DNA of 64,000 nt from Verrucomicrobiota bacterium (lineage in GTDB: Bacteria; Verrucomicrobiota; Verrucomicrobiia; Limisphaerales; RI-55). The notes under the pieces are model-generated. The model worked only from the letters and a program-made list of their open reading frames with translations. It searched no databases and had not been told where the DNA came from. How positions within the stretch are numbered: the stretch's first letter is position 1; every line of letters starts with the position of its first letter. The translations under genes and the position numbers were made by a program. This document shows positions 6,566 through 29,819 of the stretch, piece after piece. Where the stretch lies: NCBI GenBank assembly GCA_041689265.1, contig JBDNGP010000045.1, positions 1,029-65,028 of the forward strand, in the 5' to 3' direction.

Positions 6566-6719
6566 AGGGACTCAGCACAAAGGACGGGGAGAATAGCGAA
6601 GACAGCCACCGAGTCAAACGGGGAATTCGACGTGAAAAAATGTGGTTTTTTTACCATTCCCGCGCCCGGACCCTCATTGCCTACTTTACACCCCCGGTAC
6701 GGCTGACTAACGTCCGGTC

Positions 6720-10439: not shown

Positions 10440-11384
10440 TTAATTCAAGGCCCCGCCACAGCTGCTCCCGCTGCCGGCCGTGCAGGCCAGACAATGAATC
10501 CCGGTTTCGATTTTCCGGTCATTCAGCGAGGCGGGCGTGACGTCCCAAAGATGGAGCGGTTTGCCGTTGCATAGCTGCATTTTCAACATCTGGTTGAAGT
10601 CGCAATCGTAGACCTCACCCATCCAGCCGATGCTGATGGTGTTGCGGCACATCAAGCCGTCGACGGCGGAAGGATTGAAATTATTGGCGAGCAGTTGGAG
10701 GTATTCGTCCCATTGGCCGTGCCGGCGCAAATCTTCGGCAAACCGCGCGATGGGCTGGTTCGTGATGGCAAACAGCCGGTTGAATACGATGCCAAATTCG
10801 CGCACCAACACCTCTTTGTAGTCGGCTTCCAGCTCGGCCTGCGGTCCGGGCAGTTTTGCTCCAAGCGGGTTGTAGACGAGATTCAACGGCAATCGCGTGC
10901 CGTAGCCGACGGCGTTCAACTTGCGGAGCGCGGAAATGCTTTTCTCAAACACGCCCTCACCGCGTTGCGCGTTCACGTTGTCCGCCGAATAACAAGGCAA
11001 CGAAGCCACCACCTCCACCTCATGTTTGGCGAGGTAATCAGGCAGCCAGGCGAACGATTCAGTTTCGATGATCGTCAGGTTGTTGCGGTCAATCACGTGG
11101 CAACCACTGCTCCGGGCGGTCTCGACCAGGAAACGAAAATGCTCGCTCAACTCCGGCGCGCCTCCCGTGATGTCCACCGTCTCCGGTCGATGCTCTTTGA
11201 TCCATTCGCCCACCCGTTGCGCGGTGTTGGCGTCCATCATTTCCGTGCGCCATGGAGCCGCGTCCACGTGGCAGTGCGTGCAGGTCTGGTTGCACTTCCG
11301 GCCGACGTTGATCTGCAACGTGGTCAATCGGTCACGCCGAAGAGTTAATCCGTGCTCGGCGAGTCGTTGATCGAAACGGTTCAT
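10440..11384 (-). CDS. arsS: radical SAM/Cys-rich protein, ArsS-type (arsenosugar biosynthesis radical SAM family)
   Basis: CNQTCTHCHV radical-SAM CxxxCxxC cluster near the N-terminus and a C-terminal Cys cluster HCLACTAGSGSSCGGAL. It lies directly downstream of arsM. The start was moved to the Met at 11384 because the longer ORF overlaps arsM by 100 nt. Confidence 0.75.
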   Translation of the reverse strand: MNRFDQRLAEHGLTLRRDRLTTLQINVGRKCNQTCTHCHVDAAPWRTEMMDANTAQRVGEWIKEHRPETVDITGGAPELSEHFRFLVETARSSGCHVIDRNNLTIIETESFAWLPDYLAKHEVEVVASLPCYSADNVNAQRGEGVFEKSISALRKLNAVGYGTRLPLNLVYNPLGAKLPGPQAELEADYKEVLVREFGIVFNRLFAITNQPIARFAEDLRRHGQWDEYLQLLANNFNPSAVDGLMCRNTISIGWMGEVYDCDFNQMLKMQLCNGKPLHLWDVTPASLNDRKIETGIHCLACTAGSGSSCGGALN

Positions 11385-11439
11385 GTTGTGAATTGTCGAC
11401 CTGCCAAACCCTGTGCCCGTGACGTTGCGACCGTCAGAA

Positions 11440-12603
11440 TCAGCATCCGCTTCCCCCGTCGCAGCACTGGCTGGCCGTTGAGGTCGCGGCGTAGCCCGTT
11501 CCTTTTGTTTCGCGAGGATGGCGGATAGTGGCTCGGCCACAGTCGTATGGTTGCGCGTTTTCAGGGTTCACCGGTACGCGCGGTTCGATGAATTCAAAAT
11601 GTTCGACGTAGGGAGATTTGGCGAACAGTTGAAAGGTCTTGTCGCATACCGCCGTCCGGTCACCGCGCCGCAAACGGTGCCCGTCATCATCCAAAACCTC
11701 GCGAAACGGACCGCGATAAACCACTGCTTGGTTCAGTTCCCAACACGCGCCCTGCTTGCCCTTGAACGCCTCGACGGTGACGGAGCGAAACTCGATTCCC
11801 TCAACGGTCTGCCACGGTTGCGCGTCGCGCTTGAGCAATCGCACACCGTAAAACCCGGCTTCCTCAAACGCCTTCAGGAATTGATCCTCGCGCCACGCAC
11901 CGCTGATGCAGCCGCTCCACAACGTCGGGTCCTGCTGCATCGCGTGCGGCACATCCTCGTCGCTGACGATGTCCGAGATGACGGCGCGCCCACCGTTGCG
12001 CAACACGCGAAAAATTTCCGCGAACAGTCGTTGCTTGTCCACCGACTCGACCAGATTGAGGACGCAGTTCGAGACCACCACGTCCACGGACTCGGTTTCA
12101 ACGAGCGGCTGTTTGACGCTAAGATCCGCCGCGAGATCCTGGGCGCGAAGAAAGGTGTTGGCATCGGCGATCGGGTTTTTCTTCAACTCCGCGTCAAGGA
12201 GGTCAAGATCAAGCCCAAGATCCTGGATGCGGCCCTTGCGGAACTCGACGTTTTCATAGCCGAGCCGTTCGGACACGATGGGCGCGTTGCGTCGCGCGAC
12301 TTCTAGCATGTCGTCCGTCATGTCCACGCCGATGACCCGGCCCGTCGGCCCGACGACCTGCGCGGCGATGAAACAGATTTTTCCGGTGCCACTGCCGAGA
12401 TCGAGCACCGTTTCTCCGGATTTTAGGAACCGGCTTGGATCGCCGCAGCCGTAGTCCTTTTCGATCACCTCGCGTGGGATGATTTTCAGGAGGTTGGTGT
12501 CGTATTCCACCGGACAGCAGAGTGCTGCTTCGGGGGCTTTGGCCGCCGCCGCGTAGCGGGTGCTCACGGAGGACTCGGAATTCAATTTGGTTGGCTGGTT
12601 CAT
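11440..12603 (-). CDS. arsM: arsenite S-adenosylmethionine methyltransferase-like
   Basis: Class I SAM motif VLDLGSGTGKICFIAAQVVGPTGRVIGVDMTDDML. N-terminal Cys pair ALCCPVEYD plus GCG and later WSGCISGA cysteines, in the ArsM pattern. Cys-rich C-terminal tail SQCCDGGSGC. Confidence 0.75.
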   Translation of the reverse strand: MNQPTKLNSESSVSTRYAAAAKAPEAALCCPVEYDTNLLKIIPREVIEKDYGCGDPSRFLKSGETVLDLGSGTGKICFIAAQVVGPTGRVIGVDMTDDMLEVARRNAPIVSERLGYENVEFRKGRIQDLGLDLDLLDAELKKNPIADANTFLRAQDLAADLSVKQPLVETESVDVVVSNCVLNLVESVDKQRLFAEIFRVLRNGGRAVISDIVSDEDVPHAMQQDPTLWSGCISGAWREDQFLKAFEEAGFYGVRLLKRDAQPWQTVEGIEFRSVTVEAFKGKQGACWELNQAVVYRGPFREVLDDDGHRLRRGDRTAVCDKTFQLFAKSPYVEHFEFIEPRVPVNPENAQPYDCGRATIRHPRETKGTGYAATSTASQCCDGGSGC

Positions 12604-16307: not shown

Positions 16308-16739
16308 ATGAAAACGGCAGAACTAAACGAGCTATCACCGCTCACGATAAAATCGGAAAACGTTATCGAGCTTCCGTCCGGCCTTCTGGGCTTCGAGCGG
16401 ATCAAAAAGTATGTGCTGCTGTCGACGCCCCAGGAGGCGCCGTTTCTGTGGTTGCAGATGCTGGATGACCCGAACCTAGCCTTCGTCGTCGTCTCACCGT
16501 GCGCCGTGGTCGCGGATTACCAGCCCGAGATCAGCGACGAGGATTGTGACTATCTCGGCCTCCAATCTCCGCAGGACGCCATCGTTTTCAACATCGTGAC
16601 CACGCGACCGGATGGCAAGGCCACTGTGAATCTCAAGGGACCGATCGTGATCAATCGCTTCACGCTCACCGGCAAACAGGTGGTTCCCAAGAATGCCGCC
16701 GACTATTCGCTCACCCACGAGCTGGTCGACGCCAACTGA
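16308..16739 (+). CDS. fliW: flagellar assembly factor FliW
   Basis: 143 aa. [33 protein letters not shown]; sits directly upstream of csrA. Confidence 0.88.
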
Positions 16740-16747
16740 TCCATCCC

Positions 16748-17017
16748 ATGTTAATCCTTTCCCGCAAAACCAACGAAAGCATCGTCATCGACGGACGGAT
16801 CACCGTGAAGATCGTCCGGCTGGACGGCGACGTTGTGAAAATCGGCATCGAGGCACCCCGCGACGTGCCGGTGCATCGACAGGAAGTGTACGACGAAATT
16901 CAGCGCAACAACAAGGAGGCGCTCACCACCAAAACACAGGGTGTGCCCCGGCTGAACGTCAAGAAGTCCAACACTGGAGAATCTCAGGAAGGCCTGGTGG
17001 TTGTGTCATCCAAATGA
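16748..17017 (+). CDS. csrA: carbon storage regulator CsrA (flagellar-type, extended C-terminus)
   Basis: [52 protein letters not shown]. Confidence 0.93.
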
Positions 17018-17072
17018 CGCCGCCCGGCACGGAACGCCAAACAAGTAACAAGTAACAACCACCAAGAAAACC

Positions 17073-17882
17073 ATGGTCATCAACACGAACATACAGGCAC
17101 AGGCTGCGGCCTCAAACCTGTCCACCAGTACGAGCATGCTGAGCAAGTCGCTCGCGCGATTGAGCAGTGGCTCCAAGATCGTCAACCCCGCCGATGACGC
17201 CGCCGGCCTCGCTGTGGCCTCCCGGCTCGACGCGCAGATCAAGCGGCTCGGTGCCGCAAAATCGAACGTCGGCAACGCCATCTCCTTCACCCAGACCCAG
17301 GACGGGTATTTGAAGAAGGTTGCCAAGGCTTATGATCGTATGAGTGAACTCGCGATCCTCGCGCAGGACATCACCAAGTCCGACGCCGACCGCTCGCTCT
17401 ACAACTCTGAATTTTCCCAATTGCAGGCCTACGTCACCAACACGGCCGACCGCGATTTTAACGGAGTCAGCCTGTTCTCGACGACAGCGCTGAACGTCAC
17501 CATTGATTCCGAAGGCGGCACGTTCACGATGAACGGCATCGATATGGCCGCCAGCCAGTACACGAATGCGATCTCCGGAACCACCGACATTACGACCACC
17601 GGCACGGCCATCACAGCACTCGGATTCGTCAAAGCCGCGATCACGAAACTTGCTGAAGACCGCGCCAGCATCGGTGCTTATCAAAGTCGTCTGAACCTGA
17701 CCTCCGAACAACTCATGGTGAGCAAGGAGAATCTCGCCGCCGCCAGCTCCGTCATTCAGGACGTCGACGTTGCCGAGGAATCCACGCAGTTCGCGCGCTA
17801 CAACATTCTTGTCCAATCCGGCACCGCGATGCTCGCCCAGGCCAACCAGCTTCCGCAGAGCGTTTTGCGACTGCTCCAGTAA
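17073..17882 (+). CDS. fliC: flagellin (short, D0/D1-only type)
   Basis: N-terminal MVINTNIQAQAAASNLSTS...LSSGSKIVNPADDAAGLAV and C-terminal LAQANQLPQSVLRLLQ. Only 269 aa, with a Thr-rich central patch SGTTDITTTGTA. Confidence 0.93.
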   Translation: MVINTNIQAQAAASNLSTSTSMLSKSLARLSSGSKIVNPADDAAGLAVASRLDAQIKRLGAAKSNVGNAISFTQTQDGYLKKVAKAYDRMSELAILAQDITKSDADRSLYNSEFSQLQAYVTNTADRDFNGVSLFSTTALNVTIDSEGGTFTMNGIDMAASQYTNAISGTTDITTTGTAITALGFVKAAITKLAEDRASIGAYQSRLNLTSEQLMVSKENLAAASSVIQDVDVAEESTQFARYNILVQSGTAMLAQANQLPQSVLRLLQ

Positions 17883-18077: not shown

Positions 18078-21000
18078 ATGACCGAAAACCAAACAACCAA
18101 CACGAGCCGCCACGAACAACACGTCGATCCGGGTGCCATTCTGGCCGGGGCCGAGGACTACGTCGTGGTGCGCATGTCCGCGGAGTTTCCCGCATATGAG
18201 ACGCACTCCGATGTGGACTTGCTGTGCGGCGATCCGTTAAAAATACTGGGCCACATTCTGCGCCGGGCAAAGACCTACGAAGACCGTGGATTCAAAGTGG
18301 AAGTTTCGGCAACCGGGTGGCAGTTGCACGTCGATTTTTTTCCCCCGAAGGCCAATCGACTGGATTTTCGTTTCGATCTGATCGGCGGTTTTGAATCGTT
18401 TAACAAGGTTTCGATTGCGCCGGATTACGTGACCGCGATCTTGAACCGCAAACGGAAGGTGACCCGGGACGGCCGCACGTTTCTGATCCCCGACGAAGCG
18501 GATGATCTGGCGCTGCGACTTCTGGAATATGCAGAGAACATCGACTCCCGTCCCGACAAGGTAAAGCATCTGAAGTTCGTCCAAAGTGCTTCGAATCTCG
18601 GTTATGTTGACCGGCTCAGAACGTTCACCAATCTGGAGGTGACGAGATCGGGTGAAACCATTTCTTGCTCGATCAAACCGATCAGGGCCGAGTCCGTGAA
18701 ACCGGATTCACGAGGCGCGAACGATTATTATCAGCTTTCAAAAACATGCCAGGTGCCGGATCTGGCGGTGTGTTACGAATCGTTGTTCGGCCGCAGAAGC
18801 AACGGCCGCTTCGTGGAAGTCGGCGCGTTTGATGGCGAGTATGTGAGCAATACGAGCGGACTGGCGGACCAGGGCTGGACAGGGCACTACATTGAGCCGG
18901 TCCCTCAATCCGCCGAAAAATATCGCGTCCGTCATGCGAACAATCCGCATGTCACGGTTTCCAACTGCGCGATTGGTGCCCGCCGGGAACGCATCCAAAT
19001 GCACGTGGGTGGTCCCCTCTCGACCGCGATCGCGGCCATGCGAAATCATTTTGAAACGCTGTCGTGGGCAAAGGGGACATTTCAGAATGGTGAAACCGTC
19101 GAGGCCGAGCAGTTTACGCTGAACGAGTACCTGACCGCCGAAAAAATCGAGCCGGGATTTGATCTCATGGTCATCGATATCGAAGGTGGCGAGTGGGCCG
19201 CCCTCGAGCCGTTCGATATCGCGCACTGGCAGCCGCAGATGGTCATCATTGAACTGCACGATCAGAATCAGGATTACACTGTGATCCACGACCAATGTGC
19301 GAAACTGGTGCGATACTTTGAGCAGCGCGATTATCTCCCGATTTTTAAGGACTCCACCAACACCGTGTACGTCCGGCGCAAAAAGTTGATGACGCGGTGT
19401 GAACGCATGGATTACCTGATGGTCTGGGGCCACGGTCTCGCCCATACAGACGAGATCATGAACATGATTCGAATCCGTCGTGAGCTGGAAATCATTGCCG
19501 TTCACAAGAAGCAGATCGAGGACATGCCACAGTTCGTGGAGGATCTCTATGCGTGTGACACGGTTCCGTACGAACATCTCCAGGAGAAAACCAAGTATCT
19601 GCTGACCATTCCACAGGACGCGCTTTTCATTCTCGTTCGCAACCACAACGCGCAGGAAAAAATGTACGGTGATGGCGAGTTCCGGCACATCCAGTGCGCC
19701 CTTATCAAGGACGTGAAGGAAGAGGTGCGCAACGCCTTCAATCCGCGTTTGAACGGCAAACGTACCGAGGACCACGTCATCCACGGTTCGGATTACGAAA
19801 GCCATGTTGTCCATGCGTTGCAGGTCTTTGGCCTGCCAACAATGGAGCACTATCTCCGGCAACCGAACAGCCGCTTCAATCTGCCCTATCATCTCGAACC
19901 GTTTGAAGCCTGCCAGGTAATCGATGTGCCGCTGAAACAACTGCGAGCTCGAATTCTCGGGCGCGGGTCAGTGCCGATCGACCAGACCCCGCATTTCGAC
20001 TACGTCACCGGCGATTCAGCGAGTTATATCAACTACCACCACCAACATCTTGGAGTGGCGTTGACGGATGACCATTTTCCGGCTGCGTTCGATCGTTTGA
20101 TCAACGAGTTTGATTTTAATTTTGATGTCGGTTCCGCCAAGCCCGGCCATCCCGTCGTGCGCCGCGACACTGATGGTAATTTTGTGCTTCAGGACGGAGT
20201 TCATCGGGCCGCCATTCTGTGCGCTGGCGCTGTCCCCTCGGTGCGCGTGATAGAAATTCTTCCCGCGCTGCAGCCGCTGCCTCTGGCCGCCGTGATTTTC
20301 AGCAAAGATCGCGCGATGCAACTGGATGCCACGCTGCGTTCGCTCCATCTGCACTGTCCGGACGCAACGTCCGCCAAACTCGGCGTGCTCTACACCACGT
20401 CGTCAGAGCAGCACGCCGCCCATTACGAGGTGCTCAAGAGTGTGCATCCTGGGGTGAACTTTGTTCGCGAGCGGGATTTCCGGGATGATTTGCTGAAACT
20501 GCTTGGAAGCGCAGCGCACGTGTTGTTCGCGGTGGATGACTGTTTGTTCGTCCACAATTTCCGTATGTCGGAAGTCTTGGAACAGCTCGGTCGCAATCCG
20601 GCCGCCCTCGGTTTCTCCCTACGGCTGGGTCGCAACACGAACTATTGCTATTCTTTCGATCACGCACAGCGGTCACCCGAATTTCAAACCATCAACAACA
20701 GCGTTCTCAAATTCCGCTGGTCCGGTGCGGAGTATGATTTCGGTTATCCGCTCGAAGTTTCCAGTTCCGTCTATCGGACGGCGGACCTGCTGCCGTTGCT
20801 GACGGAACAGAGCTTCCGCAGTCCGAACACGCTCGAAGCGATGCTTTCCGAAAACGCCGGACAGTTTGCCTCGACCCACCCGGAACTGCTCAGTTTTTCG
20901 CAATCCGCCGCGTTTTGCGCACCGCTGAACATGGTGCAGTCCGAGTGCCCAAATCGCGCCGGTGAAGCGGGTGAAAATTCTCCGGATGAACTCGCGCAAC

Positions 21001-24000
21001 GTTTCGCCAACGGAGATCGCATCGATCTGGCGTTCACTTTCGGATTCACGCCCGGTGCCTGCCATCAGGAAGTGCCTCTCCAGTTCACCTCGGATCGGGT
21101 CACCCAGGTCCAACCTTTGCTTTCGAAGAAAACGCACTCGTACGGTTCCATCGGTCACCGCCTCATGCGTAGAACAATTCCCGTTTCGCGCAAACGAAAA
21201 TGGCAGAGTGCGATCCCGGACGAGGTTGCGTTTTGGAATCAATACATCTCCACGCGAGGAGGCGGACGCTGGGAAAAGGAACTTGAATTCCGCCTGCGTC
21301 CCGACACGGATCTGCAATCCTACGTTACGCAAGGGGTCGAAATTCCGTCCGGCGGCACGCTGCGTTTGTTGGATGTTGGCGCCGGCCCCATTTCGTTTCT
21401 CGGAAAGCGTTGGGCTGGACGCACGGTGGAACTGACCGCCGTCGACCCCCTGGCCGAGCACTACCACGAGATTCTTGATCGTTGCGGCGTGAAACCTCCG
21501 GTTCCGACGGAACTGGCAGCAGGGGAAACGCTCACGAGCCGTTTCGCGTTGAATCACTTCGACGTCGTGCATGCGCGCAATTGCATCGACCACAGCCTTG
21601 ACGCGCCGCAGGCCGTCGACCAGATGCTTGGGATCACCAAACCGGGTGGCTGGGTCATGCTCGAACACGGCATTTGTGAATCCAATGCCAACAATCAGAG
21701 CGGCCTTCATGGCTGGAATTTTTTTGCCGAAAATAATGATTTTATCATCGAAGCTGCGGGTGGCGAACGGGTGAACGTGACGCGGCGTTACGCCGGAGTT
21801 GCGGAAGTTACCTGCGTCGTCGATGCGAAAAGGAACTGGATCTCCGTTCGCATGCAGAAACGAGTGTCCACGTTGGCCGCCGACAACCGCCCGGTGGTTT
21901 CCGTGGTCGTTCCTTGTTACAATCAAGCGGAGTATCTGCCGGATGCAGTGGAGAGCGTCGCCAAACAGACGTTCAGGGATTTTGAGATCGTCATTGTCGA
22001 CGACGGGAGTCCGGACAATACCGTCGAGGTCGCGCGCCAGTTGGCTGCCCGTCACTCCGATTGCCACATCTCGATCGTCAACAAGCCGAACGGTGGCCTC
22101 GCCGATGCCCGTAACGCCGGCATTCGTGCAGCACGCGGTCAATATATTTTACCATTGGATTGCGACGACAAGATCTCAACAGATCATCTCGCCAAGACCG
22201 TTGCGTTTCTCGAGGCCAACCCCAAGGTGGCCATCGTCGGGACGTTCCGCCAGGACTTTGGCGCAGCCACTGGCGTCGTGCAGGCGGTGCACTACAACCT
22301 CGCTGAGATCCTGCAGGGCAACCGCAACAGCTACTGCTCACTCTATCGCCGTGACGTGTGGGAGGCCGTCGGCGGCTACCGGACGGACATGGTGCCGGCT
22401 GGTTACGAGGACTGGGATTTTTGGATTGGTTGTGCTGAACGTGGTTGGTTCGCGAGCATCCTGCCCGAACCGCTTTTCCATTATCGAGTGAAGGCCGAGA
22501 GCATGTTCACCGAAGCCGCGGAACACGATGACGAACTGCGCGCGCAGATTGCTCTGAATCATCCGAAGCTGTTTACCGCAGATCAACTTGCCGACGCGAA
22601 CCGCTGCCTGGCCGGAATGAAAACTTCGTTGGATGGAACTTCCACTCCCGTTGCCGATAAATCCGAACGGGCAAAAACAGCGTCGCCCAACGATCCGTTA
22701 GACGCGCTTGAAAAGATGATCAAAGAAGCACTGTCGATCAATCCGGACGGGATCGAAGCCCTCCAGTTGCTGGCCGCGCTGCACATTCAGCGCAAAGACT
22801 GGCATGCCGGAGCGCAGGCGGGGCAACGCCTGTTCAAGCTTGATCCCGACGGCGTCAAGTCACTCATGCTGCTCGCCCAATGCCTGCTTGGCGGTGGGGA
22901 CGGCGAGACTGCCATAATGATATTTCAACGGGTTCTGGCAATCGAACCTCAGAACGAACTCGCCGGGGCGTGCCTGGCCGATCTCACTGAGCCGGATGCG
23001 GAACCTTCCAATACGGAGGAAGCTTTTGGGCAGGCTGAACGTAATGTTCGCCGGGTGTTGAGCCTTGAGCCGGACAATGTGGATGCTCACCGTTTGTTGA
23101 CCGGTATTCTCGCCGGTCAGAGCCGATGGGCGGAGGCGATCGAATCAGGCAACCGCGTGTTGGCTGCCGAAACGAACGACGTCGACACCCGCGCGTTGGT
23201 GGCGAAATGTCATTGGGAGACGGGGGCCCGCACTACGGCTGAACTATTGTTTGAGGAAGTGCTCGAAACGGATCCAACCAACACAATTGCGTGCGAATGG
23301 CAGGCGGGATTGAATGATTCTGAAGCTGGCGTTCCCGTCGCGACGCCTGCCCGTACGGCCGAACTGCCGAAGCCCGGGAAGAGGTTTCCCGAATCAAAAC
23401 TGGCCCATCAATATTTGGACGGTCTGGAGGGGCTGGAAATCGGCGGCAGTGCGCACAATCCGTTTGGACTGAACAGTCGGAACGTGGACTACACCGCCGA
23501 TCTCGCGACGGTCCACAAGCTCGAAGAAGTAAAGATCTGCGGTGAGGCGCTGCCAGTTGACATCGTCGCTCCAGGCGATGTATTGCCGGTGGCTGAGGGT
23601 TCGCAGGATTTCGTCATTTCTTCGCATGTCATCGAACACTTTTTTGATCCGATCAAGGCGATCAAGGAATGGCAGCGTGTGGTTCGGCCGGGTGGATACG
23701 TTTTCATAATCGCGCCGCACAAGGAACGAACGTTCGACAAGGAACGTTCGCGAACGCCGCTGGCCGAACTTCTCGATCGCCATAACGGAATCATTTCCCC
23801 GCCGGCTGTGGATACCCATCATCACTACACGGTTTGGACCCCGGAAGACCTGCTGGAGGTATGCCGGCATTTTGACTGGAACGTCGTGGAGTTTCACGAT
23901 GCGGACGACAAGGTCGGCAACGGTTTCACGCTGGTCATCCAAAAAGCGCCCAAACCCGCTGAACAGGCTTTCAAGGTCAATCCCGTTGATGACGTGCCTC

Positions 24001-27000
24001 GAGAAAATGCGACGTCAGGGAAAGATCATTCAAGATCGATCGGTGTGCCAGATGAACTGCCGAAGGTTTCGGTCATCGTTCCCACCTTCAACCGTCTGGA
24101 TCGCCTGCCAGTCGCATTGAAAAGCATTCTTGCCCAGACGTTCCGGGATTTCGAAATCGTCGTCGTCAACGATGCGGGCGAGGACGTCACCGACGTTGTT
24201 TCCGCGCTCCAACATGACGGGCGCATTCGTGTCATCACGCACCCGGAAAACAAGGGGCTCGCGGCCGCCCGGAACACCGGCATCCAGGCCGCCCGCGGCA
24301 AATACATCGCCTACCTCGATGACGATGACCGGTTTTACCCGGACCACCTTCAAACGCTGACGGGCTTTCTCCGCGACCACCCGGGAACCGTCGCCTACAC
24401 GGATTCTAATCGGGCTCACGAGAAGAAAATCAACGGGCAGTGGCAGGTCACGCGCCGCGATGTGGCCTACGCCCAAGACTGGGACAACGACAAGATCCTC
24501 ATTGATAATTTTGTTCCGGTCTTGTCCTTCATGCACGAGAAGTCATTGCTGGAAAAATCCGGTGAATTTGACGAGACGCTTCGCCGGCATGAGGACTGGG
24601 ATTTATGGATCAGGCTGTCGCGGCATTTTGACTTCGTGCGCATCCCCAGGGTCACGTCCGAGTTCTCCTGGCGTGACGATGGAACGTCCATGACCGGGCA
24701 GAGCCAGTCTCTTTTCTTGGAGACAATGCGGCGTATTCACACCAAGTACGCGGAATTCGCTGGGGGACGCCCTTATCTCCTGGAGGCACAAGAGCTCGCA
24801 CGGGAAGAACTGACCCGGACCAGCGACGCCGAACCGAAGTTCAAGGTCGGTTTCATGACGCTGGATCCGAAAGTCACAGCATGCGCCTACCTGAGACTTA
24901 CCGCACCGCTCGACCATCTTCATCGTCGCGGGCAGATTGAGCACCTTTCGGTGTGTGATTTCGTAGAGGATCAGTTGACCACGAACGATGAGAACTTGCG
25001 GAAAGTTCAAGTACTGGTCGTGCAGCGTGGCATGGCGGCCGGCATCCCTTACGACGTGATGCGAAAGGCGTTCCCGCCTTCAGTCCGCATCGTTTTTGAG
25101 CTTGATGACGCATTGACACTTCTTCCGCCCAATCACGGCGCGTTTGACTATTTTCAATCCGTCCGCCCACAACTCGAGGAGTATCTGCGCAAAGCGGATC
25201 TGGTGACGGTGTCGACGCCGAAGCTGAAGGAGTTGTACTCGGGTTTTAATGATCACATAGAAGTGCTGCCCAACGCGATTGATACCCAGATCTGGAAACC
25301 ACAAGCGCCGCGACCCGTTGACGGTGAAAAGATCAGAATCCTGTTCAGCGGTACGTTGACGCATCAACACGATCTGGCGCTGGTCGAGCAGGCGATCGAA
25401 CGCATTGCGCTTGAGTTTTCCGAGCGAGTGGAATTCCTATTCTGGGGAAACATTCCAAACAATTTACGGCATCTACCTCAGATCAAATCGATTGCGGAAT
25501 TTACCAACGACTACCGAACCTACGCGCAACGGCTGCAAGCGATGCCGATTGATCTCGCGCTGGTTCCGCTCGAGGAGACAACATTCAATCGTGCGAAGTC
25601 GGCGATCAAATGGCTCGAATACTCGGCCTGCCGAATTCCGGCCATCTTCACCGATATCGACGCCTACAATCAAACTGTCGAGCACGGCATCAGCGGCTGG
25701 CTGGTTCCCAACTCCAGTGATGCGTGGTATGGCGCTATGAAGCGTCTGGTCCTGGATGATTCGTTGCGTTTGCGCATCGGTGAGACCGCGCACAAAACGG
25801 TGATGAGGGAGCACACTCTCAAACAGCTGGCACCACTCTGGGTGAAATCCTACGAGAAGGCATTGCGGCGTTCCGTGAGAAAGGCGGTCAAAAAGACTCT
25901 GCCAGTTTCAATTGTCATCCCGACGTTTAACAATCTTCATCTGACGCGCCGGTGCCTGGACTCCGTTCTGTGCAATACGCCGCAAGGTCAGTTCGAACTC
26001 GTGGTTGTGGACAATGGATCCACCGACGGAACGGTTCCGTTTCTCAGTGAGATGCAGAAACACGGTCGGCTTCGGTTGATCAGCAACCTAAAGAATCACG
26101 GCTTTGCGCACGCCTGCAATCAAGGCGCCGCCGCAGGGCAGGGAGACCACGTTCTCTTTCTGAACAACGATACCGTCGTGACCACCGGCTGGATCGGAGC
26201 CCTCCTGGAAACCGCCAACAGGCATGATGTGGGTGCGGTTGGAGCCAAACTCCTTTATCCCGACGGCACCATTCAACACGCTGGGATCGGTTGGATCAAT
26301 GGCGTTCCAGATCACCCGATGCGTCATCAACCGGCGAATCATCCGGAAGCCAATCAATTTCGTGAACTCGACATGGTGACCGGCGCGTGCCTGCTGGTTC
26401 CACGCAAACTGTTTGTTCAACTGGGTGGATTCGATGAGATCTATCGCAACGGTGTGGAGGATATCGATTTGTGTCTCCGCATCCGCGTCGCCGGCCACAA
26501 AGTGGTTTATCAACCGGGAGCCGTGGTGTTCCATCATGAGGGCAAATCCTCCGGCCGCTTTGACCATGTGTCAGAGAATCTTCAAAAGTTCGCCGAACGA
26601 TGGAAGGGTCGCTTTGACAACGATTATCGATTTCTGTTGCCGAAGAAGGGGCAGACGATGCGTGCAAAAATCAGCGTTCTCAATCCCGCCGCCGGAAAGA
26701 GAGATTCAGCCGCCTCTGATCATAAAGTTAAGATCAACTGGTGCGGATCATTTTTTGACTACGGCAGTCTGTCGAATATCAACCGGGTGCTGACGGATGC
26801 TTTGGAAGAGCAGGGGACAAATGTCTCGCGGGTGCAAACTCACGATCTTGATGCCAAGCCGCCGAAAGCGTTGCGCGTGTATCGTCGCAAACTGGCGGCG
26901 GAAGCGAACGCCGATGCGGCGTTAACCGTGCGTCACGCGTGGCCGCCGGACTGGTCGCGTCCGGTGAACGGAAAACTCGCTGTGATTCAACCGTGGGAGT

Positions 27001-29819
27001 TTGGTTCCCTGCCGAAACAATGGGTTGAAGACGCGAAGAAAGTCGACGCATTCTGGGTGCCGTCAAGCTACGTGAAAAAGGTCTACGTGGAATCCGGTGT
27101 GCCCGAGGACAAGGTTCATGTGGTCCCGAACGGCATTGATCCCGAGCTGTTCCGGCCGGACGCCAGACCGATCAAACTCAAGACGAAAAAGACGTTCAAG
27201 TTCCTGTTCGTCGGCGGCACGATTCATCGCAAGGGACCGGACGTGTTGCTCAGGTCATACTGCGAAACGTTTGGTGCGAAGGACGACGTCTGTCTCGTGA
27301 TCAAAGATTTTGGTGGTGGTTCGGTTTATGCCGGGCAGACGCTCGAACAACAGATCGAGCAGCTCAAAAAGCAACCGAACGCGCCGGAGATTCTTTACCT
27401 CAACGAGGAGCTGCCGCCGGCCGATCTGCCGGGGCTGTTCACTGCGTGCGATTGCCTCGTGCATCCGTATCGCGGCGAGGGATTCGGGATGCCGGTTCTG
27501 GAAGCGATGGCTTGCGGGTTGCCGGTGGTCGTGACGGCGGGCGGTTCGACGGATGACTTTGTCCCGGTCGAGGCGGGTTATCATATTCCGTCTGTTCGGA
27601 AAGTGTTTGGTCAAGCAGTCGGGGATATTCCTTTGGCTGGTGATGGCTGGTTGTTGGAACCGAATCTGGATGCGTTGAAGTGGGTGATGCGGCGGGTTTT
27701 TTCCAACCGCGACGAGGCGGCGGAAAAAGGCGGTGCGGCGAGCCGGTTCGCGCACGAAAACTACTCGTGGAAACTGGTTGCCCAACGCGTGGCGCAGCTT
27801 GCGGCCGAGTTGATTGGAACGGAACGGAAACCTGCCGCGAACGCGACGGCAAAACCTGTTGCAAAGACTGTCCAGAGAAAAGCGCCGGTTGCGATCGAGC
27901 TGCCGGACGTCGCCCGGTTGGGCTATGTCGGGGCCGCTCGTCAACTTCTCAAGCAGAAGAAACTAGTGCCCGCGTGGAATGCTGTTCAGGACGCGTTGAA
28001 AGTGCGTCCGTTCCATCCGGAAGCGTATTTGTTGATGGCTGAGATCGCCTGGACCGCCGGACAATCGAAGCTGATGAAAGAATGCGTCGACCGCGTGTTG
28101 GCGATGACGCCGAACTGGAAACCGGCAAAGAAATTTATCAAATCACATCCAGTGCGGACAGCATCGGCGAAGGTGACGTTTGCTCCGGTGCCCGAAGAGG
28201 ATAATCCGCGTCTGACCGTGTGTCTGATCACCAAGAACGAAGAACAGTTCATCGGCCAGTGTCTGGATTCCGTGAAATCCGTGGCGGACCAGATTGTGGT
28301 CATGGACACCGGGTCGTCTGATCGGACGGTTGAGATCGCGAAAGGGCGCGGTGCCGGGATTCATCACTTCGAGTGGTGCGACGATTTCAGCGCGGCTCGC
28401 AATGCCGCCTTGGAACACGCGACCGGCGACTGGGTTCTCGTGCTGGACGCGGATGAAGTGCTGTCGCCCGATTCGATTTCAGAGCTGAAGAAGTCGTTGA
28501 AAACGAAGAACGCGATCGGCTGGCGGTTGCCGATCATTGACGACGGACGCGAAGCCGAGGGCTGCAACTATGTTGCGCGTTTGTTCCGCAACGCTCCGGG
28601 CCTGTTCTACGTCTGCCGGGTTCACGAACAGGTGTTCAGCAGCGTTGAAGTTCGGCGGGAAGAGTGGGGCATGACTGCGGACGTCGGCCAAGCGACGCTG
28701 CGTCACTACGGTTACACCGAGCAGCTGGTGAAGGATCGCAACAAGGTTAGTCGCAACCTCAAGTTGCTTGAAAAAGCGATTGAAGAGATTTCCGACGATC
28801 CGAATTTGTTGATGAACTACGGACTTGAGCTTGTCCGCTCGGAACGACTGGAGGACGGTCTGGCGCGATACGCCGAGGCGTTTGAGTCGATGAGCGGAAA
28901 GCCGAAGAACGAAGTGACGCCTGAATTGCGTGAGACGTTGTTAACCCAATACTCATCACAGCTGATGAAGGCGAAAAACTGGCACGAGATCGTGTGTGTT
29001 CTGAACTCCGGCATCGCCCGTTCCGGCGGGCTCACGGCGTCGTTGCACTTCAGTCTCGGACTGGCCCACCAGGAATTGCACGAGTGGACCGAGGCTGCTG
29101 AAGAATTTCGTCAATGCCTGAAGAAGCGGCATCAGAAGACGTTCTCCGTTTCCAACAAAGTGATTGCCGGTGGCGCGCCACGTCATTGCCTTGCGCTGGC
29201 GCTGTGGAAATCTGGCGATTGCGAATCTGCCGCCAGGGAATTTGCCGCCGGACTGACGGAAGACCCTTCGTTGCTTTCTCTGCAAATGGATCACGCCCGG
29301 TTCCTGTTGGATCAGGAGCAGCCGATCGAAGCGTTACAGCAGTTGCATGGTTTGGTCGTTGCAAACGCCGGCATTCAGGAAGCCTGGGTGATGGGCGGAC
29401 GAATCGCGCTGAGTGACCCGGACTTTATCGAGTTCGCCCGCGACTGGACGGTCGAAGCGGTCCGCCAACACCCGCAGAATCATGTGGTCGTCGCGCAACG
29501 CGCGGAAACCTTGATGGTGAGCCAGCAGTTTTTCGACGCGTTGCCGTTCTGGCGACAGCTGGACGGTCATCCGAAGGCGGTGTCCGCCCGAATCATTTGT
29601 GAACTGATGCAGGGTGGATCCAGCATTGACGCGCCGCCGGTCAACGAACGGGAAGTGAGCCAGGAGTTTTTGAACTGGTACCGCCGGTTAATCAGCTACA
29701 ACGCCGTCGAAAGCGTAAGTGCGATCCACGAGCGGTTGGAGACGCTGCGGATCTTCCTGCCCACGGCGGTCGCCACGTTGGAGGCGGTGCTCCGGCAGGC
29801 TGAAGTCGAAGTGGCGTAA
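18078..29819 (+). CDS. giant multidomain glycosyltransferase/methyltransferase fusion protein (3,913 aa)
   Basis: Single uninterrupted 11,742-nt ORF. Recognisable modules are listed as separate 'other' features. I saw no signal peptide or TM-length hydrophobic stretch, and no NRPS/PKS or adhesin-repeat motifs. Confidence 0.85.
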   Translation: MTENQTTNTSRHEQHVDPGAILAGAEDYVVVRMSAEFPAYETHSDVDLLCGDPLKILGHILRRAKTYEDRGFKVEVSATGWQLHVDFFPPKANRLDFRFDLIGGFESFNKVSIAPDYVTAILNRKRKVTRDGRTFLIPDEADDLALRLLEYAENIDSRPDKVKHLKFVQSASNLGYVDRLRTFTNLEVTRSGETISCSIKPIRAESVKPDSRGANDYYQLSKTCQVPDLAVCYESLFGRRSNGRFVEVGAFDGEYVSNTSGLADQGWTGHYIEPVPQSAEKYRVRHANNPHVTVSNCAIGARRERIQMHVGGPLSTAIAAMRNHFETLSWAKGTFQNGETVEAEQFTLNEYLTAEKIEPGFDLMVIDIEGGEWAALEPFDIAHWQPQMVIIELHDQNQDYTVIHDQCAKLVRYFEQRDYLPIFKDSTNTVYVRRKKLMTRCERMDYLMVWGHGLAHTDEIMNMIRIRRELEIIAVHKKQIEDMPQFVEDLYACDTVPYEHLQEKTKYLLTIPQDALFILVRNHNAQEKMYGDGEFRHIQCALIKDVKEEVRNAFNPRLNGKRTEDHVIHGSDYESHVVHALQVFGLPTMEHYLRQPNSRFNLPYHLEPFEACQVIDVPLKQLRARILGRGSVPIDQTPHFDYVTGDSASYINYHHQHLGVALTDDHFPAAFDRLINEFDFNFDVGSAKPGHPVVRRDTDGNFVLQDGVHRAAILCAGAVPSVRVIEILPALQPLPLAAVIFSKDRAMQLDATLRSLHLHCPDATSAKLGVLYTTSSEQHAAHYEVLKSVHPGVNFVRERDFRDDLLKLLGSAAHVLFAVDDCLFVHNFRMSEVLEQLGRNPAALGFSLRLGRNTNYCYSFDHAQRSPEFQTINNSVLKFRWSGAEYDFGYPLEVSSSVYRTADLLPLLTEQSFRSPNTLEAMLSENAGQFASTHPELLSFSQSAAFCAPLNMVQSECPNRAGEAGENSPDELAQRFANGDRIDLAFTFGFTPGACHQEVPLQFTSDRVTQVQPLLSKKTHSYGSIGHRLMRRTIPVSRKRKWQSAIPDEVAFWNQYISTRGGGRWEKELEFRLRPDTDLQSYVTQGVEIPSGGTLRLLDVGAGPISFLGKRWAGRTVELTAVDPLAEHYHEILDRCGVKPPVPTELAAGETLTSRFALNHFDVVHARNCIDHSLDAPQAVDQMLGITKPGGWVMLEHGICESNANNQSGLHGWNFFAENNDFIIEAAGGERVNVTRRYAGVAEVTCVVDAKRNWISVRMQKRVSTLAADNRPVVSVVVPCYNQAEYLPDAVESVAKQTFRDFEIVIVDDGSPDNTVEVARQLAARHSDCHISIVNKPNGGLADARNAGIRAARGQYILPLDCDDKISTDHLAKTVAFLEANPKVAIVGTFRQDFGAATGVVQAVHYNLAEILQGNRNSYCSLYRRDVWEAVGGYRTDMVPAGYEDWDFWIGCAERGWFASILPEPLFHYRVKAESMFTEAAEHDDELRAQIALNHPKLFTADQLADANRCLAGMKTSLDGTSTPVADKSERAKTASPNDPLDALEKMIKEALSINPDGIEALQLLAALHIQRKDWHAGAQAGQRLFKLDPDGVKSLMLLAQCLLGGGDGETAIMIFQRVLAIEPQNELAGACLADLTEPDAEPSNTEEAFGQAERNVRRVLSLEPDNVDAHRLLTGILAGQSRWAEAIESGNRVLAAETNDVDTRALVAKCHWETGARTTAELLFEEVLETDPTNTIACEWQAGLNDSEAGVPVATPARTAELPKPGKRFPESKLAHQYLDGLEGLEIGGSAHNPFGLNSRNVDYTADLATVHKLEEVKICGEALPVDIVAPGDVLPVAEGSQDFVISSHVIEHFFDPIKAIKEWQRVVRPGGYVFIIAPHKERTFDKERSRTPLAELLDRHNGIISPPAVDTHHHYTVWTPEDLLEVCRHFDWNVVEFHDADDKVGNGFTLVIQKAPKPAEQAFKVNPVDDVPRENATSGKDHSRSIGVPDELPKVSVIVPTFNRLDRLPVALKSILAQTFRDFEIVVVNDAGEDVTDVVSALQHDGRIRVITHPENKGLAAARNTGIQAARGKYIAYLDDDDRFYPDHLQTLTGFLRDHPGTVAYTDSNRAHEKKINGQWQVTRRDVAYAQDWDNDKILIDNFVPVLSFMHEKSLLEKSGEFDETLRRHEDWDLWIRLSRHFDFVRIPRVTSEFSWRDDGTSMTGQSQSLFLETMRRIHTKYAEFAGGRPYLLEAQELAREELTRTSDAEPKFKVGFMTLDPKVTACAYLRLTAPLDHLHRRGQIEHLSVCDFVEDQLTTNDENLRKVQVLVVQRGMAAGIPYDVMRKAFPPSVRIVFELDDALTLLPPNHGAFDYFQSVRPQLEEYLRKADLVTVSTPKLKELYSGFNDHIEVLPNAIDTQIWKPQAPRPVDGEKIRILFSGTLTHQHDLALVEQAIERIALEFSERVEFLFWGNIPNNLRHLPQIKSIAEFTNDYRTYAQRLQAMPIDLALVPLEETTFNRAKSAIKWLEYSACRIPAIFTDIDAYNQTVEHGISGWLVPNSSDAWYGAMKRLVLDDSLRLRIGETAHKTVMREHTLKQLAPLWVKSYEKALRRSVRKAVKKTLPVSIVIPTFNNLHLTRRCLDSVLCNTPQGQFELVVVDNGSTDGTVPFLSEMQKHGRLRLISNLKNHGFAHACNQGAAAGQGDHVLFLNNDTVVTTGWIGALLETANRHDVGAVGAKLLYPDGTIQHAGIGWINGVPDHPMRHQPANHPEANQFRELDMVTGACLLVPRKLFVQLGGFDEIYRNGVEDIDLCLRIRVAGHKVVYQPGAVVFHHEGKSSGRFDHVSENLQKFAERWKGRFDNDYRFLLPKKGQTMRAKISVLNPAAGKRDSAASDHKVKINWCGSFFDYGSLSNINRVLTDALEEQGTNVSRVQTHDLDAKPPKALRVYRRKLAAEANADAALTVRHAWPPDWSRPVNGKLAVIQPWEFGSLPKQWVEDAKKVDAFWVPSSYVKKVYVESGVPEDKVHVVPNGIDPELFRPDARPIKLKTKKTFKFLFVGGTIHRKGPDVLLRSYCETFGAKDDVCLVIKDFGGGSVYAGQTLEQQIEQLKKQPNAPEILYLNEELPPADLPGLFTACDCLVHPYRGEGFGMPVLEAMACGLPVVVTAGGSTDDFVPVEAGYHIPSVRKVFGQAVGDIPLAGDGWLLEPNLDALKWVMRRVFSNRDEAAEKGGAASRFAHENYSWKLVAQRVAQLAAELIGTERKPAANATAKPVAKTVQRKAPVAIELPDVARLGYVGAARQLLKQKKLVPAWNAVQDALKVRPFHPEAYLLMAEIAWTAGQSKLMKECVDRVLAMTPNWKPAKKFIKSHPVRTASAKVTFAPVPEEDNPRLTVCLITKNEEQFIGQCLDSVKSVADQIVVMDTGSSDRTVEIAKGRGAGIHHFEWCDDFSAARNAALEHATGDWVLVLDADEVLSPDSISELKKSLKTKNAIGWRLPIIDDGREAEGCNYVARLFRNAPGLFYVCRVHEQVFSSVEVRREEWGMTADVGQATLRHYGYTEQLVKDRNKVSRNLKLLEKAIEEISDDPNLLMNYGLELVRSERLEDGLARYAEAFESMSGKPKNEVTPELRETLLTQYSSQLMKAKNWHEIVCVLNSGIARSGGLTASLHFSLGLAHQELHEWTEAAEEFRQCLKKRHQKTFSVSNKVIAGGAPRHCLALALWKSGDCESAAREFAAGLTEDPSLLSLQMDHARFLLDQEQPIEALQQLHGLVVANAGIQEAWVMGGRIALSDPDFIEFARDWTVEAVRQHPQNHVVVAQRAETLMVSQQFFDALPFWRQLDGHPKAVSARIICELMQGGSSIDAPPVNEREVSQEFLNWYRRLISYNAVESVSAIHERLETLRIFLPTAVATLEAVLRQAEVEVA
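18150..18575 (+). other. giant ORF module: nucleotidyltransferase-fold-like N-terminal region (tentative)
   Basis: HSDVDLLCGDP followed by WQLHVDFFPP and FRFDLIGG resembles the hSDxDLl...hxD pattern of minimal pol-beta-type NTases. Confidence 0.3.
18795..19340 (+). other. giant ORF module: FkbM-family methyltransferase
   Basis: FVEVGAFDGEYVSNTSG (VDVGANxG-like) and FDLMVIDIEGGEWAAL (IDLLKIDVEGxE-like). Confidence 0.75.
20140..20260 (+). other. giant ORF motif: ParB/Srx-like DGxHR segment (tentative)
   Basis: PVVRRDTDGNFVLQDGVHRAAILCAGA resembles the ParB-N/sulfiredoxin-fold core. Confidence 0.25.
20275..21100 (+). other. giant ORF module: unclassified, possibly GT-A-like
   Basis: LAAVIFSKDRAMQLDATLRSL...FAVDDCLF has a Rossmann-like beta-alpha start plus an acidic DD motif. 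No family was assigned. Confidence 0.3.
21230..21800 (+). other. giant ORF module: class I SAM-dependent methyltransferase
   Basis: Motif I LRLLDVGAGPISFLG; later FDVVHARNCIDHSLDAPQAVDQMLGITKPGGWVMLEH. Confidence 0.7.
21891..22520 (+). other. giant ORF module: GT2 glycosyltransferase #1
   Basis: VSVVVPCYNQAEYLPDAVESVAKQTFRDFEIVIVDDGSPDNT, LPLDCDD, YEDWDFW. Confidence 0.85.
22690..23290 (+). other. giant ORF module: TPR block 1
   Basis: Repeated 34-aa-like units ending in ...LSINPDGIEA, ...FKLDPDGVKS, ...LAIEPQNELA, ...LSLEPDNVDA, ...LETDPTNTIA. Confidence 0.6.
23397..23945 (+). other. giant ORF module: Methyltransf_11-like SAM methyltransferase
   Basis: GLEIGGSAHNPFG; SQDFVISSHVIEHFFDPIKAIKEWQRVVRPGGYVFIIAP. 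Confidence 0.65.
24063..24760 (+). other. giant ORF module: GT2 glycosyltransferase #2
   Basis: VSVIVPTFNRLDRLPVALKSILAQTFRDFEIVVVNDAGED, YLDDDD, HEDWDLWIRL. Confidence 0.85.
24837..25870 (+). other. giant ORF module: GT-B fold glycosyltransferase (GT1-family-like)
   Basis: KIRILFSGTLTHQHDL..., IDLALVPLEETTFNRAKSAIKWLEYSACRIPAIFTDIDAYNQTVEHGISGWLV. Confidence 0.6.
25899..26640 (+). other. giant ORF module: GT2 glycosyltransferase #3
   Basis: VSIVIPTFNNLHLTRRCLDSVLCNTPQGQFELVVVDNGSTDGT, FLNNDT, GACLLVPRKLFVQLGGFDE, VEDIDLCLR, FHHEGKS. Confidence 0.85.
26721..27820 (+). other. giant ORF module: GT4-type (GT-B, EX7E) glycosyltransferase
   Basis: FKFLFVGGTIHRKGPDVLL, VHPYRGEGFGMPVLEAMACGLPVVVTAGGSTDDFV. 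Confidence 0.8.
27900..28135 (+). other. giant ORF module: short TPR block 2
   Basis: AWNAVQDALKVRPFHPEAYLLMAEIAWTAGQSKLMKECVDRVLAMTPNWKPA. Confidence 0.45.
28206..28720 (+). other. giant ORF module: GT2 glycosyltransferase #4 (GT2+TPR type)
   Basis: LTVCLITKNEEQFIGQCLDSVKSVADQIVVMDTGSSDRTVEIA, WCDDFSAARNAALEHATGDWVLVLDADEVL. Confidence 0.75.
28720..29816 (+). other. giant ORF module: C-terminal TPR-like helical repeat region
   Basis: NLKLLEKAIEEISDDPNLLMNYGLELVRSERLEDGLARYAEAFE..., WTEAAEEFRQCLKK, LALALWKSGDCESAAREFAAGLTEDPS. Confidence 0.5.

Follow-up and report, generated by a model that had tools for sequence, protein, structure and literature searches.

What does the N-terminal third of a giant glycosyltransferase protein do, when a single methyltransferase is all that domain models find in it? 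The question was raised by a 64,000-nucleotide stretch of DNA from a Verrucomicrobiota bacterium (assembly GCA_041689265.1, contig JBDNGP010000045.1, positions 1,029 to 65,028), referred to below as the window. One reading frame on its plus strand (18078-29819) encodes 3,913 amino acids (aa) and is called here the giant open reading frame (ORF). Pfam placed four GT2 and two GT1/GT4 glycosyltransferase domains, two further S-adenosylmethionine (SAM) methyltransferases and TPR repeats in its C-terminal two thirds, and the sole Pfam match in the first ~1,090 aa was an FkbM methyltransferase (aa 247-419). NCBIfam and PDB-sequence searches of the raw N-terminal segments gave no assignment beyond FkbM. 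We found that aa ~14-1005 form an autonomous cassette, which consists, in this order, of domain A (a predicted nucleotidyltransferase, NTase, fold), FkbM, a nucleoside-diphosphate-kinase-like (NDK-like) domain, a ParB/sulfiredoxin-fold (ParB/Srx) domain and domain C (a putative GT-A-like glycosyltransferase). The domain assignments and the conserved cassette are held with high confidence, and the cassette may serve to decorate or cap a glycan. Its parts, with the methyltransferase that follows them, are:

18117..18677, plus strand: domain A, predicted Pol-beta-type nucleotidyltransferase fold (aa 14-200; homologues, AlphaFold 2 (AF2) model, Foldseek)
18678..18809, plus strand: low-confidence linker (aa ~201-244; predicted local distance difference test score, pLDDT, of 42-58 over aa 201-240, unconserved in alignment A4)
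18810..19337, plus strand: FkbM-family SAM methyltransferase (aa 245-420; PF05050 E=6e-22, TIGR01444 E=5e-12)
19404..19859, plus strand: nucleoside-diphosphate-kinase-like domain (aa 443-594; alignment A1, AF2, Foldseek)
19902..20258, plus strand: ParB/sulfiredoxin-fold domain with DGVHR (aa 609-727; profile match, Foldseek against BFVD)
20283..21092, plus strand: domain C, GT-A-like putative glycosyltransferase (aa 736-1005; weak profile similarity)
21225..21872, plus strand: SAM methyltransferase between domain C and the first GT2 (aa ~1050-1265; Pfam Methyltransf_12/25 at aa 1098-1193)

The last of these, which shows 60% identity in the relative L006, marks the end of the N-terminal cassette. 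Because it sits between domain C and the first GT2 (starting at aa 1273), ~1,272 aa precede that GT2, and not the ~1,000 aa counted in the first-pass annotation of this DNA. All the motifs quoted in that annotation were found in the giant ORF where it had placed them:

aa 43-53: HSDVDLLCGDP
aa 83-88: LHVDFF
aa 97-104: FRFDLIGG
aa 444-454: MDYLMVWGHGL
aa 566-576: HVIHGSDYESH
aa 692-714: PVVRRDTDGNFVLQDGVHRAAIL, in the ParB-like region
aa 738-750: AVIFSKDRAMQLD, at the start of domain C
aa 817-824: FAVDDCLF, in domain C

Folds and conserved residues of the cassette domains

The best homologue E-values were 3e-90 for aa 430-735, 1e-83 for aa 736-1050 and 2e-48 for aa 1-240, and the conservation calls rest on 42-44 diverse homologues per family. 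The middle segment, aa 430-735, retrieved at least 57 protein clusters, which were mostly stand-alone proteins of 270-350 aa without a Pfam domain. A ~270-aa stretch and a ParB-like segment had been annotated as separate parts; both turned out to belong to one conserved unit of ~290 aa (unit B, aa ~443-727). The ~270-aa stretch, in which no motif had been recognised, was resolved as the NDK-like domain together with the front half of the ParB/Srx domain. The AlphaFold model of unit B had a pLDDT of 92.5 and a predicted template modelling score (pTM) of 0.89.

The best 50 matches of this model in a Foldseek search of the PDB were all NDKs (E 1e-5 to 9e-5, probability 1.0), with target TM scores of 0.51-0.68 over ~150 columns. 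Against BFVD, NDKs held ranks 1-3, and ranks 8-50 were mostly taken by ParB/Sulfiredoxin-domain proteins, which aligned over ~115-130 columns with a probability of mostly 0.96-1.0. In alignment A1, the residues G453, Y491, P497, H500, K504, Y507, K547, R551, N555, H569 and D572 of the NDK-like domain were invariant, and S571 was at least 90% conserved within H-V-I-H-G/A-S-D. The HVIHGSD motif corresponds to NxxHGSD of NDK, with H569 at the position of the catalytic His and H566 at that of the Asn, and the register given by hhalign placed IRxxF...HVIHGSD on NDK IRKDF...NTVHGSDS. A profile search of PDB sequences and Pfam yielded no NDK match to unit B even at E<=10.

The suggestion that the DGxHR segment resembles the ParB/sulfiredoxin core was borne out, both by the BFVD matches at ranks 8-50 and at the sequence level. 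The unit B profile matched SbnI (5uje), its closest relative among PDB sequences, at E=1e-4 across the DGVHR region, and D706, G707, H709 and R710 of DGVHR were at least 90% conserved (alignment A1). The domain had no helix-turn-helix (HTH) Pfam match and no dimerisation domain, and the unit ends ~20 residues after DGVHR, where domain C follows. Since the HTH and dimerisation domains are absent, the domain was assigned to the enzymatic SerK/SbnI/Srx type and not to the partition proteins. By its model, unit B is an NDK-like domain rigidly packed against a ParB/Srx domain of predicted enzymatic type.

Three giant-virus proteins in BFVD also matched the unit B model, over 150-207 columns and at E 3e-4 to 1e-3: A0A5K0UAL1 (Yasminevirus, 726 aa), A0A1V0SAX2 (Catovirus, 863 aa) and A0A481Z0W0 (Mimivirus LCMiAC01, 477 aa). 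Two of the three carry the annotation 'glycosyltransferase'. These model matches suggest that a related domain, possibly NDK-like, is also fused to transferases in Nucleocytoviricota. Another unit B homologue (P0042, eukprot g14428.t1; E=1.5e-45) came from a eukaryotic proteome set, which contamination or horizontal transfer could explain.

For domain A, a word-indexed homologue search of aa 1-240 gave no matches and an exhaustive HMMER scan was needed, which retrieved 326 representatives (E<=1e-10 for 187). The homologues were stand-alone proteins of 160-250 aa and domains within very large proteins. In alignment A4 (44 sequences), D45 and D47 were invariant and D86 was at least 90% conserved, as were F99, D100, P138, R147, E150, K161, K163 and H164 (RPDKIKH). 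The AF2 model (pLDDT 86.5) was ordered over aa ~11-200 and disordered over 201-240, and the carboxylates fell in the model strands 44-50 and 82-88, as a DxD and an Asp on the neighbouring strand. The PDB matches listed by Foldseek were all of NTase fold (best E=2e-3, probability 1.0) and included MenT3/TglT, JHP933, TM1012, viral poly(A) polymerases, FKRP, Pol lambda/mu, TUTases and DncV. The domain A of the window had no Pfam NTase match, and no family was significant at the profile level; the weak Pfam matches among the 44 members, each by a single member, were to NTP_transf_2 (0.0039) and NTP_transf_5 (0.0071), and also to AbiEii and Polbeta. The guess of an NTase-like segment is thus supported at the level of fold and active site, because domain A matches the NTase fold and keeps the carboxylate triad. 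On the modelled fold, domain A represents a divergent NTase-fold family distinct from the existing Pfam families. Homology of domain A to the LicD-like part of P0057, a protein described below, was rejected (hhalign E=0.64).

More than 1,344 homologues (clusters) of domain C were found, with E down to 1e-83. They occur as stand-alone proteins of ~280 aa, with an N-terminal TPR fusion or with a C-terminal GT2 fusion. The last form accounted for 40 of the top 120 homologues, counted as those extended at the C-terminus by over 150 residues, with GT2-type Pfam matches at a length of ~510-550 aa. Among the homologues checked, no Pfam model covered domain C, and Pfam GT2 was matched by 1 of 42 members; the GT2 Pfam matches of P0058 and P0088 fell in a truncated downstream GT2 domain and not in domain C. 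Invariant residues were D820-D821 (VDD), S847, R849, G851, N853, Y890, S895-S896, N917, E920, H996 and E998.

When a 121-sequence profile of domain C was compared with a 44-sequence GT2 profile by hhalign, the two aligned over 101 columns at E=1.1e-3 with a probability of 20%, and unrelated-pair controls gave 0.025-0.93. The profile had been trimmed before this comparison, as leftover GT2 ends of fused sequences gave a spurious E=5.6e-7. In the GT2 register, IFSKDR fell on VPCYNQ, VLYxAS on VVDDGS and VLFLVDD on YILPLDxDD. The profile search of PDB sequences returned SpsA only, at E=0.057, around the DD motif. The GT-A-like start seen in the first pass is weakly supported by the hhalign register and by SpsA, and its D820-D821 pair is invariant. 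Homology of domain C to GT11 was rejected (hhalign E=0.12).

In Desulforamulus reducens, the C-family gene follows genes for ManC/PMM and GDP-mannose dehydratase/epimerase. A separate observation was made in a Candidatus Kuenenia metagenome-assembled genome (MAG; locus L046, 231-12982), where a protein with TPR and domain C lies between polyproteins of 2,582 aa and 1,220 aa. The modules of these polyproteins include sulfotransferases, TylF and further methyltransferases, GT1 and GT2. The locus represents another giant glycan-assembly locus with domain C.

In their source databases, members of the families are named 'hypothetical protein' or carry a generic glycosyltransferase label, and RefSeq calls the C members 'hypothetical protein'. 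The idea that new catalytic families may be present holds in so far as three families have neither a Pfam or NCBIfam model nor a solved relative detectable by sequence; as folds, all of them are known.

Pairing, partner genes and the flagellin locus

Unit B was encoded in 42 species-level genomes, from Verrucomicrobiota, Planctomycetota, Ignavibacteria, Nitrospirales, several phyla of the candidate phyla radiation (CPR), Geobacter/Geomonas, Aeromonas, Halobacteriovorax and Bacteroidota. The closest were Verrucomicrobiota MAGs (Oleiharenicola), with 55-60% identity. Domain A was found within ~1.7 kb of unit B in 42 of 44 loci by tblastn, L040 was added by a hidden Markov model, and the remaining locus, L044, carries merely a 49-residue fragment of unit B. 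A and B form an obligate pair: in every locus with a complete unit B, which covers all 41 complete genome loci, a domain A homologue was either fused to B or its direct neighbour on the same strand. The fusions were permuted and of the following kinds:

P0011, P0018, P0029: fusion of B and A
L041 7154-8360 and L050 4995-6993 (NDK+A ORF 5998-6993): fusion of the NDK-like domain and A, with ParB encoded separately
L014, L015, L019, P0006: fusion of FkbM and B
L047 4765-7749 (IMG/VR contig IMGVR_UViG_3300009528_000017): stand-alone protein of 994 aa with A, FkbM, B and C

A GT11 gene lies between the ParB/Srx piece and the NDK+A ORF in L050. The 994-aa protein of L047 equals the whole N-terminal third of the giant ORF of the window, and this fusion is a strong argument by association for a joint action of domain A with the NDK-like and ParB/Srx domains. 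The cassette is carried by four IMG/VR contigs, which are filed as viral.

All of the ~50 loci examined were glycan loci, with GT2, GT11, wzm/wzt or flagellin genes. The A-B pair was almost always accompanied either by GT11 (PF01531, the alpha-1,2-fucosyltransferase family), in 26 loci, or by domain C, in 10-11 loci, and the overlap between the two sets was zero. In the closest Verrucomicrobia relatives (L003, L004, L005 and L007), GT11 stood directly after B, in the slot held by C in the window and in L006, and the alternation held in the IMG/VR loci too. Given this strict alternation of GT11 and C, fucosyl-type transfer is predicted for domain C.

Outside Verrucomicrobia, the usual gene order was wzm, wzt, methyltransferase/sulfotransferase, B, A, GT11 and GT2. 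Here wzm was recognised as ABC2_membrane, and wzt as ABC_tran with a weak Wzt_C match (E=2.5e-5, below the Pfam cut-off). The wzm/wzt genes stood directly upstream in 8-9 of ~44 loci, where wzt and B were separated by FkbM, Methyltransf_24 or a sulfotransferase. FkbM was fused to or translationally coupled with unit B in ~10 loci. A gene for a Gmd-like GDP-mannose 4,6-dehydratase was present in 11 B-containing loci (8 of the 26 GT11-containing ones), and L037 was the sole locus with a confirmed Fcl-like epimerase. In P0057 (L052 3811-5358), a relative of the NDK-like domain (WGHG...HVIHGSD) was found fused to a phosphotransferase domain of the LicD family; the locus of P0057 is a flagellin island with Maf_flag10_N, FkbM and TPR-GT41 genes.

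In the window, three genes lie directly upstream of the giant ORF (16308..17882):

16308-16739, plus strand: fliW (Pfam FliW)
16748-17017, plus strand: csrA-like ORF of 89 aa (sequence recognised by eye)
17073-17882, plus strand: flagellin gene, 269 aa (Pfam Flagellin_N, Flagellin_C)

The relative L006 keeps the order fliW, flagellin and giant ORF, with every N-terminal domain in matching order. Judged by its position beside the flagellin gene, the giant ORF appears to be a flagellin glycosylation island in a single gene. The cassette of the window is not beside wzm-wzt, and its target is presumably flagellin. The remaining genes of the window were housekeeping genes, and inspection of the rest of the window revealed no dedicated sugar-nucleotide operon beside the giant ORF.

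Some further genes of the window were noted. A radical-SAM protein with DUF3641 adjoins a SAM methyltransferase at 10440-12603 (minus strand), an arrangement that is unrelated to the cassette and is reminiscent of the ArsS/ArsM arsenosugar pair. The plus-strand gene at 37368-39269 encodes a C-type-lectin plus TraB/GumN-family protein. A fused gene for ATP sulfurylase and adenosine phosphosulfate (APS) kinase, that is, a 3'-phosphoadenosine 5'-phosphosulfate (PAPS) synthase, was found at 40146-41726 (minus strand). Should the glycan be sulfated, a source of PAPS could be relevant, and sulfotransferases occur in the loci of the relatives L036 and L046.

Proposed function and rival explanations

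From the folds, the conserved residues and the gene context, we propose that the cassette may decorate or cap a glycan with a phosphoryl or nucleotidyl group, a role to which we would give somewhat less than an even chance. In this mechanism, domain C (in the window) or GT11 (elsewhere) would add a sugar, and this is probably a GDP-linked 6-deoxyhexose (e.g., fucose). Unit B would act as a phosphotransferase, with the NDK-like domain moving an NTP phosphate onto the conserved His569 and the SbnI/SerK-like ParB/Srx domain binding nucleotide or acceptor through DGxHR. Domain A, in which the DxD...D metal site is intact, would use that phosphate as acceptor or donor in the transfer of a nucleotidyl or phospho-linked group, and FkbM would methylate. 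The joint product would be a phosphate-type decoration or non-reducing-end cap, possibly a methyl-phosphate or phosphodiester, on the flagellin glycan in the window and on the O-polysaccharide in the wzm/wzt loci. As the best explanation overall, a compromise between the figure for folds and cassette and the figure for the capping role, this reading has a probability of roughly 0.5.

Several points weigh against this reading. The comparison of unit B with a single NDK sequence by hhalign was not significant (E=0.13), its informative part being the motif alignment alone, and neither the NDK (PF00334) nor the ParBc Pfam model matched unit B. Lys12 of NDK strand 1 (KPD) is replaced by a conserved I-W-G-H-G, an equivalence that was drawn from the strand-1 position in the model and not from superposition. 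The domain is therefore called NDK-like and not NDK, as it falls outside the NDKs by sequence and lacks the strand-1 Lys. With Lys12 replaced and no NDK or ParBc model match, the phosphotransfer chemistry may be altered or lost. The assignment of domain C to GT-A comes from weak profile scores and is made provisionally. Moreover, wzm/wzt adjacency was limited to 8-9 of ~44 loci, some ORFs in the Aeromonas locus look Wzx/Wzy-like by eye, where a chain terminator is not expected, and the gene context is compatible with either glycan modification or donor synthesis.

The same domains could instead form a donor-supply cassette, in which the ParB/Srx domain would be a sugar 1-kinase (e.g., for L-fucose), the NDK-like domain would turn the GDP left by the transferase back into GTP, and domain A would act as a sugar-1-phosphate nucleotidylyltransferase, so that the three domains would supply the adjacent GT11 or C directly with a nucleoside-diphosphate sugar. 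This reading corresponds to the sugar activation by a partly self-sufficient protein that the first-pass annotation had envisaged. Such a cycle would employ all three nucleotide-handling domains and accounts for the near-obligate link to GT11 or C equally well as decoration does; substrate channelling is in keeping with fusions like that of L050 (ParB piece, GT11, NDK+A), and the cassette is carried by CPR bacteria with reduced metabolism. The known sugar-1-phosphate nucleotidylyltransferases have the GT-A-like NTP_transferase fold, from which the fold of domain A differs. A Gmd-like gene, for the first step of de novo GDP-fucose synthesis, was co-located in 8 of the 26 GT11 loci, and with a de novo route, salvage would be redundant. 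The repeated fusion or coupling of methyltransferases to unit B and the position after wzt also fit glycan modification better. We regard donor supply as the main rival, though at a fairly low probability, and the gene context leans slightly towards decoration of the glycan and away from activation of a donor.

A non-catalytic role appears still less probable. The domains would then be pseudoenzymes or NTP-gated switches that regulate or assemble the transferase domains, or that recognise flagellin or the acceptor. The loss of NDK Lys12 and the lack of sequence-level membership in canonical enzyme families are in line with this, and the best-known role of the ParB-CTPase fold is that of a switch controlled by nucleotides, e.g., in the CTP clamps of ParB (PMC12704722). 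Yet the conserved residues are exactly of the catalytic type (the His of HGSD, the DxD...D triad and the R of DGxHR), the closest ParB/Srx relative, SbnI, is an enzyme, and small stand-alone proteins in transferase operons suggest a discrete chemical step. A conflict-system or toxin-type NTase (MenT/AbiEii-like) with a ParB-like nuclease, fortuitously fused and unrelated to glycan synthesis, is very improbable, although MenT3/TglT toxins and the DUF1814 protein JHP933 were the top structural matches of domain A and phage and defence contexts often contain ParB-like domains. The Foldseek E-value to MenT was only ~2e-3, a fold-level match, all the loci examined are glycan loci in which no antitoxin-like partner was noticed, and the domains are embedded within glycosyltransferase polyproteins. 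Finally, the first-pass annotation had allowed that the N-terminal region might prove to be poorly conserved linker or spacer sequence. This holds for the short stretches aa ~201-244 and ~1006-1049, which were the only linker-like ones; for the rest it is refuted by the strong conservation, confident folds and stand-alone homologues of every block, and its probability is negligible.

A more specific form of the glycan-decoration reading is speculative. The NTase and the NDK-like/ParB-Srx unit might constitute an unrecognised two-enzyme system, with its phospho-histidine relay in an NDK-derived domain, that caps a terminal fucose-type residue with a phosphate-based group, possibly nucleotidylated or methyl-phosphate, and domain C might be a new GT-A-type (GT74-like) fucosyltransferase family interchangeable with GT11. 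If true, this would be a new class of glycan terminator or decoration in flagellin glycans, in ABC-transporter-dependent O-antigens of many phyla (including CPR) and in viral-predicted contigs of IMG/VR.

For three sizeable families known as 'hypothetical', a fold, a set of candidate catalytic residues and definite genomic partners are now available, and the fusion of NDK-like and ParB/Srx domains brings both folds into glycan biosynthesis. Should the cassette cap or decorate glycans, it would account for the terminal epitope of some O-antigens exported by Wzt_C-type ABC transporters and of some flagellin glycans, and would provide new enzymes for phospho-glycan chemistry. The cassette was not found in the literature searched, which included the combination of ParB, NDK and NTase as well as the sequence motifs.

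Comparison with known systems

The NDK-like domain shares with NDK (PF00334) the alpha/beta fold, an active-site His in H-G/A-S-D at the equivalent strand start, a conserved upstream cluster of Arg, Lys and Asn (K547, R551, N555) and a conserved Tyr (Y491). It differs in that a ParB/Srx domain and an NTase are its constant partners, by fusion or by pairing, and in its occurrence in glycan loci and not as a housekeeping gene. Its loop from the helix end (aa ~554) to the His strand appears shorter than that of NDK in a comparison by NDK numbering.

WbdD of E. coli O9a is a kinase and methyltransferase that acts as O-polysaccharide chain terminator and is encoded after wzt. The cassette resembles it in its position just after wzm-wzt, with a Wzt that has a C-terminal glycan-binding domain, and in having a phosphotransfer-type module coupled or fused to a methyltransferase. 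No Pkinase-type Pfam match was found in the cassette, and the likeness would be a functional analogy. The cassette differs from WbdD in the extra NTase-fold partner and the tight linkage to GT11 or C, and its capping role is a prediction.

Domain A shares the Pol-beta core, the DxD...D triad and the helical C-terminal subdomain that follows with MenT/AbiEii, NTP_transf_5 and LicD/FKRP; the C-terminal motif LRYxEY...RPDKIKH and the glycan-locus context set it apart from them. A kinase that is followed by an NTase-fold protein is also found in the PsmK/PsmN pair of the lasso peptide pseudomycoidin, where a hydroxyl is phosphorylated and PsmN is then required for a further group (PMC6993621). The cassette would likewise combine a kinase and then a DxD-containing NTase-fold protein in sequence. 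PsmK is a homologue of HPr kinase that acts on a peptide Ser, unlike the NDK/ParB-like unit B, and the two systems are compared by description, not by homology.

The free serine kinases SbnI and SerK, as well as Srx, are ParB/Srx-fold enzymes that use ATP, ADP or CTP for phosphoryl transfer (PMC12704722, PMC5120207). They have in common with the ParB/Srx domain of unit B the phosphate-binding motif DG(V/H)HR and the lack of HTH and dimerisation domains. The domain of unit B differs from SbnI/SerK in that no more than ~65 residues align by sequence, in its NDK-like N-terminal partner and in a glycan and not an amino-acid context. In a 2025 survey of ParB-CTPase-fold fusions, the main text contains no NDK, nucleotidyltransferase or glycosyltransferase partners (PMC12704722).

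Fucosyltransferases of the GT-A type include the GT2 enzyme WrtF (PMC12595478) and the FucT domain of PgtA in CAZy GT74 (PMC6939170, PMC11468063). A WrtF-type chain was not among the matches of the domain C profile to PDB sequences, for which the presence of WrtF entries was not checked. Domain C differs from GT2 in the absence of the first nucleotide-binding Asp of 'DDGS', where it has VLYxAS. The alpha-1,2-fucosyltransferases in GT74 are GT-A variants and form bimodular proteins with GT2 (PMC6939170, PMC11468063, PMC8476585). Domain C is similar to the GT74-GT2 protein PgtA in its frequent C-terminal GT2 fusion and in replacing GT11, which is an alpha-1,2-fucosyltransferase family. On this architecture and the GT11 alternation, compared by description only, domain C could correspond to CAZy GT74.

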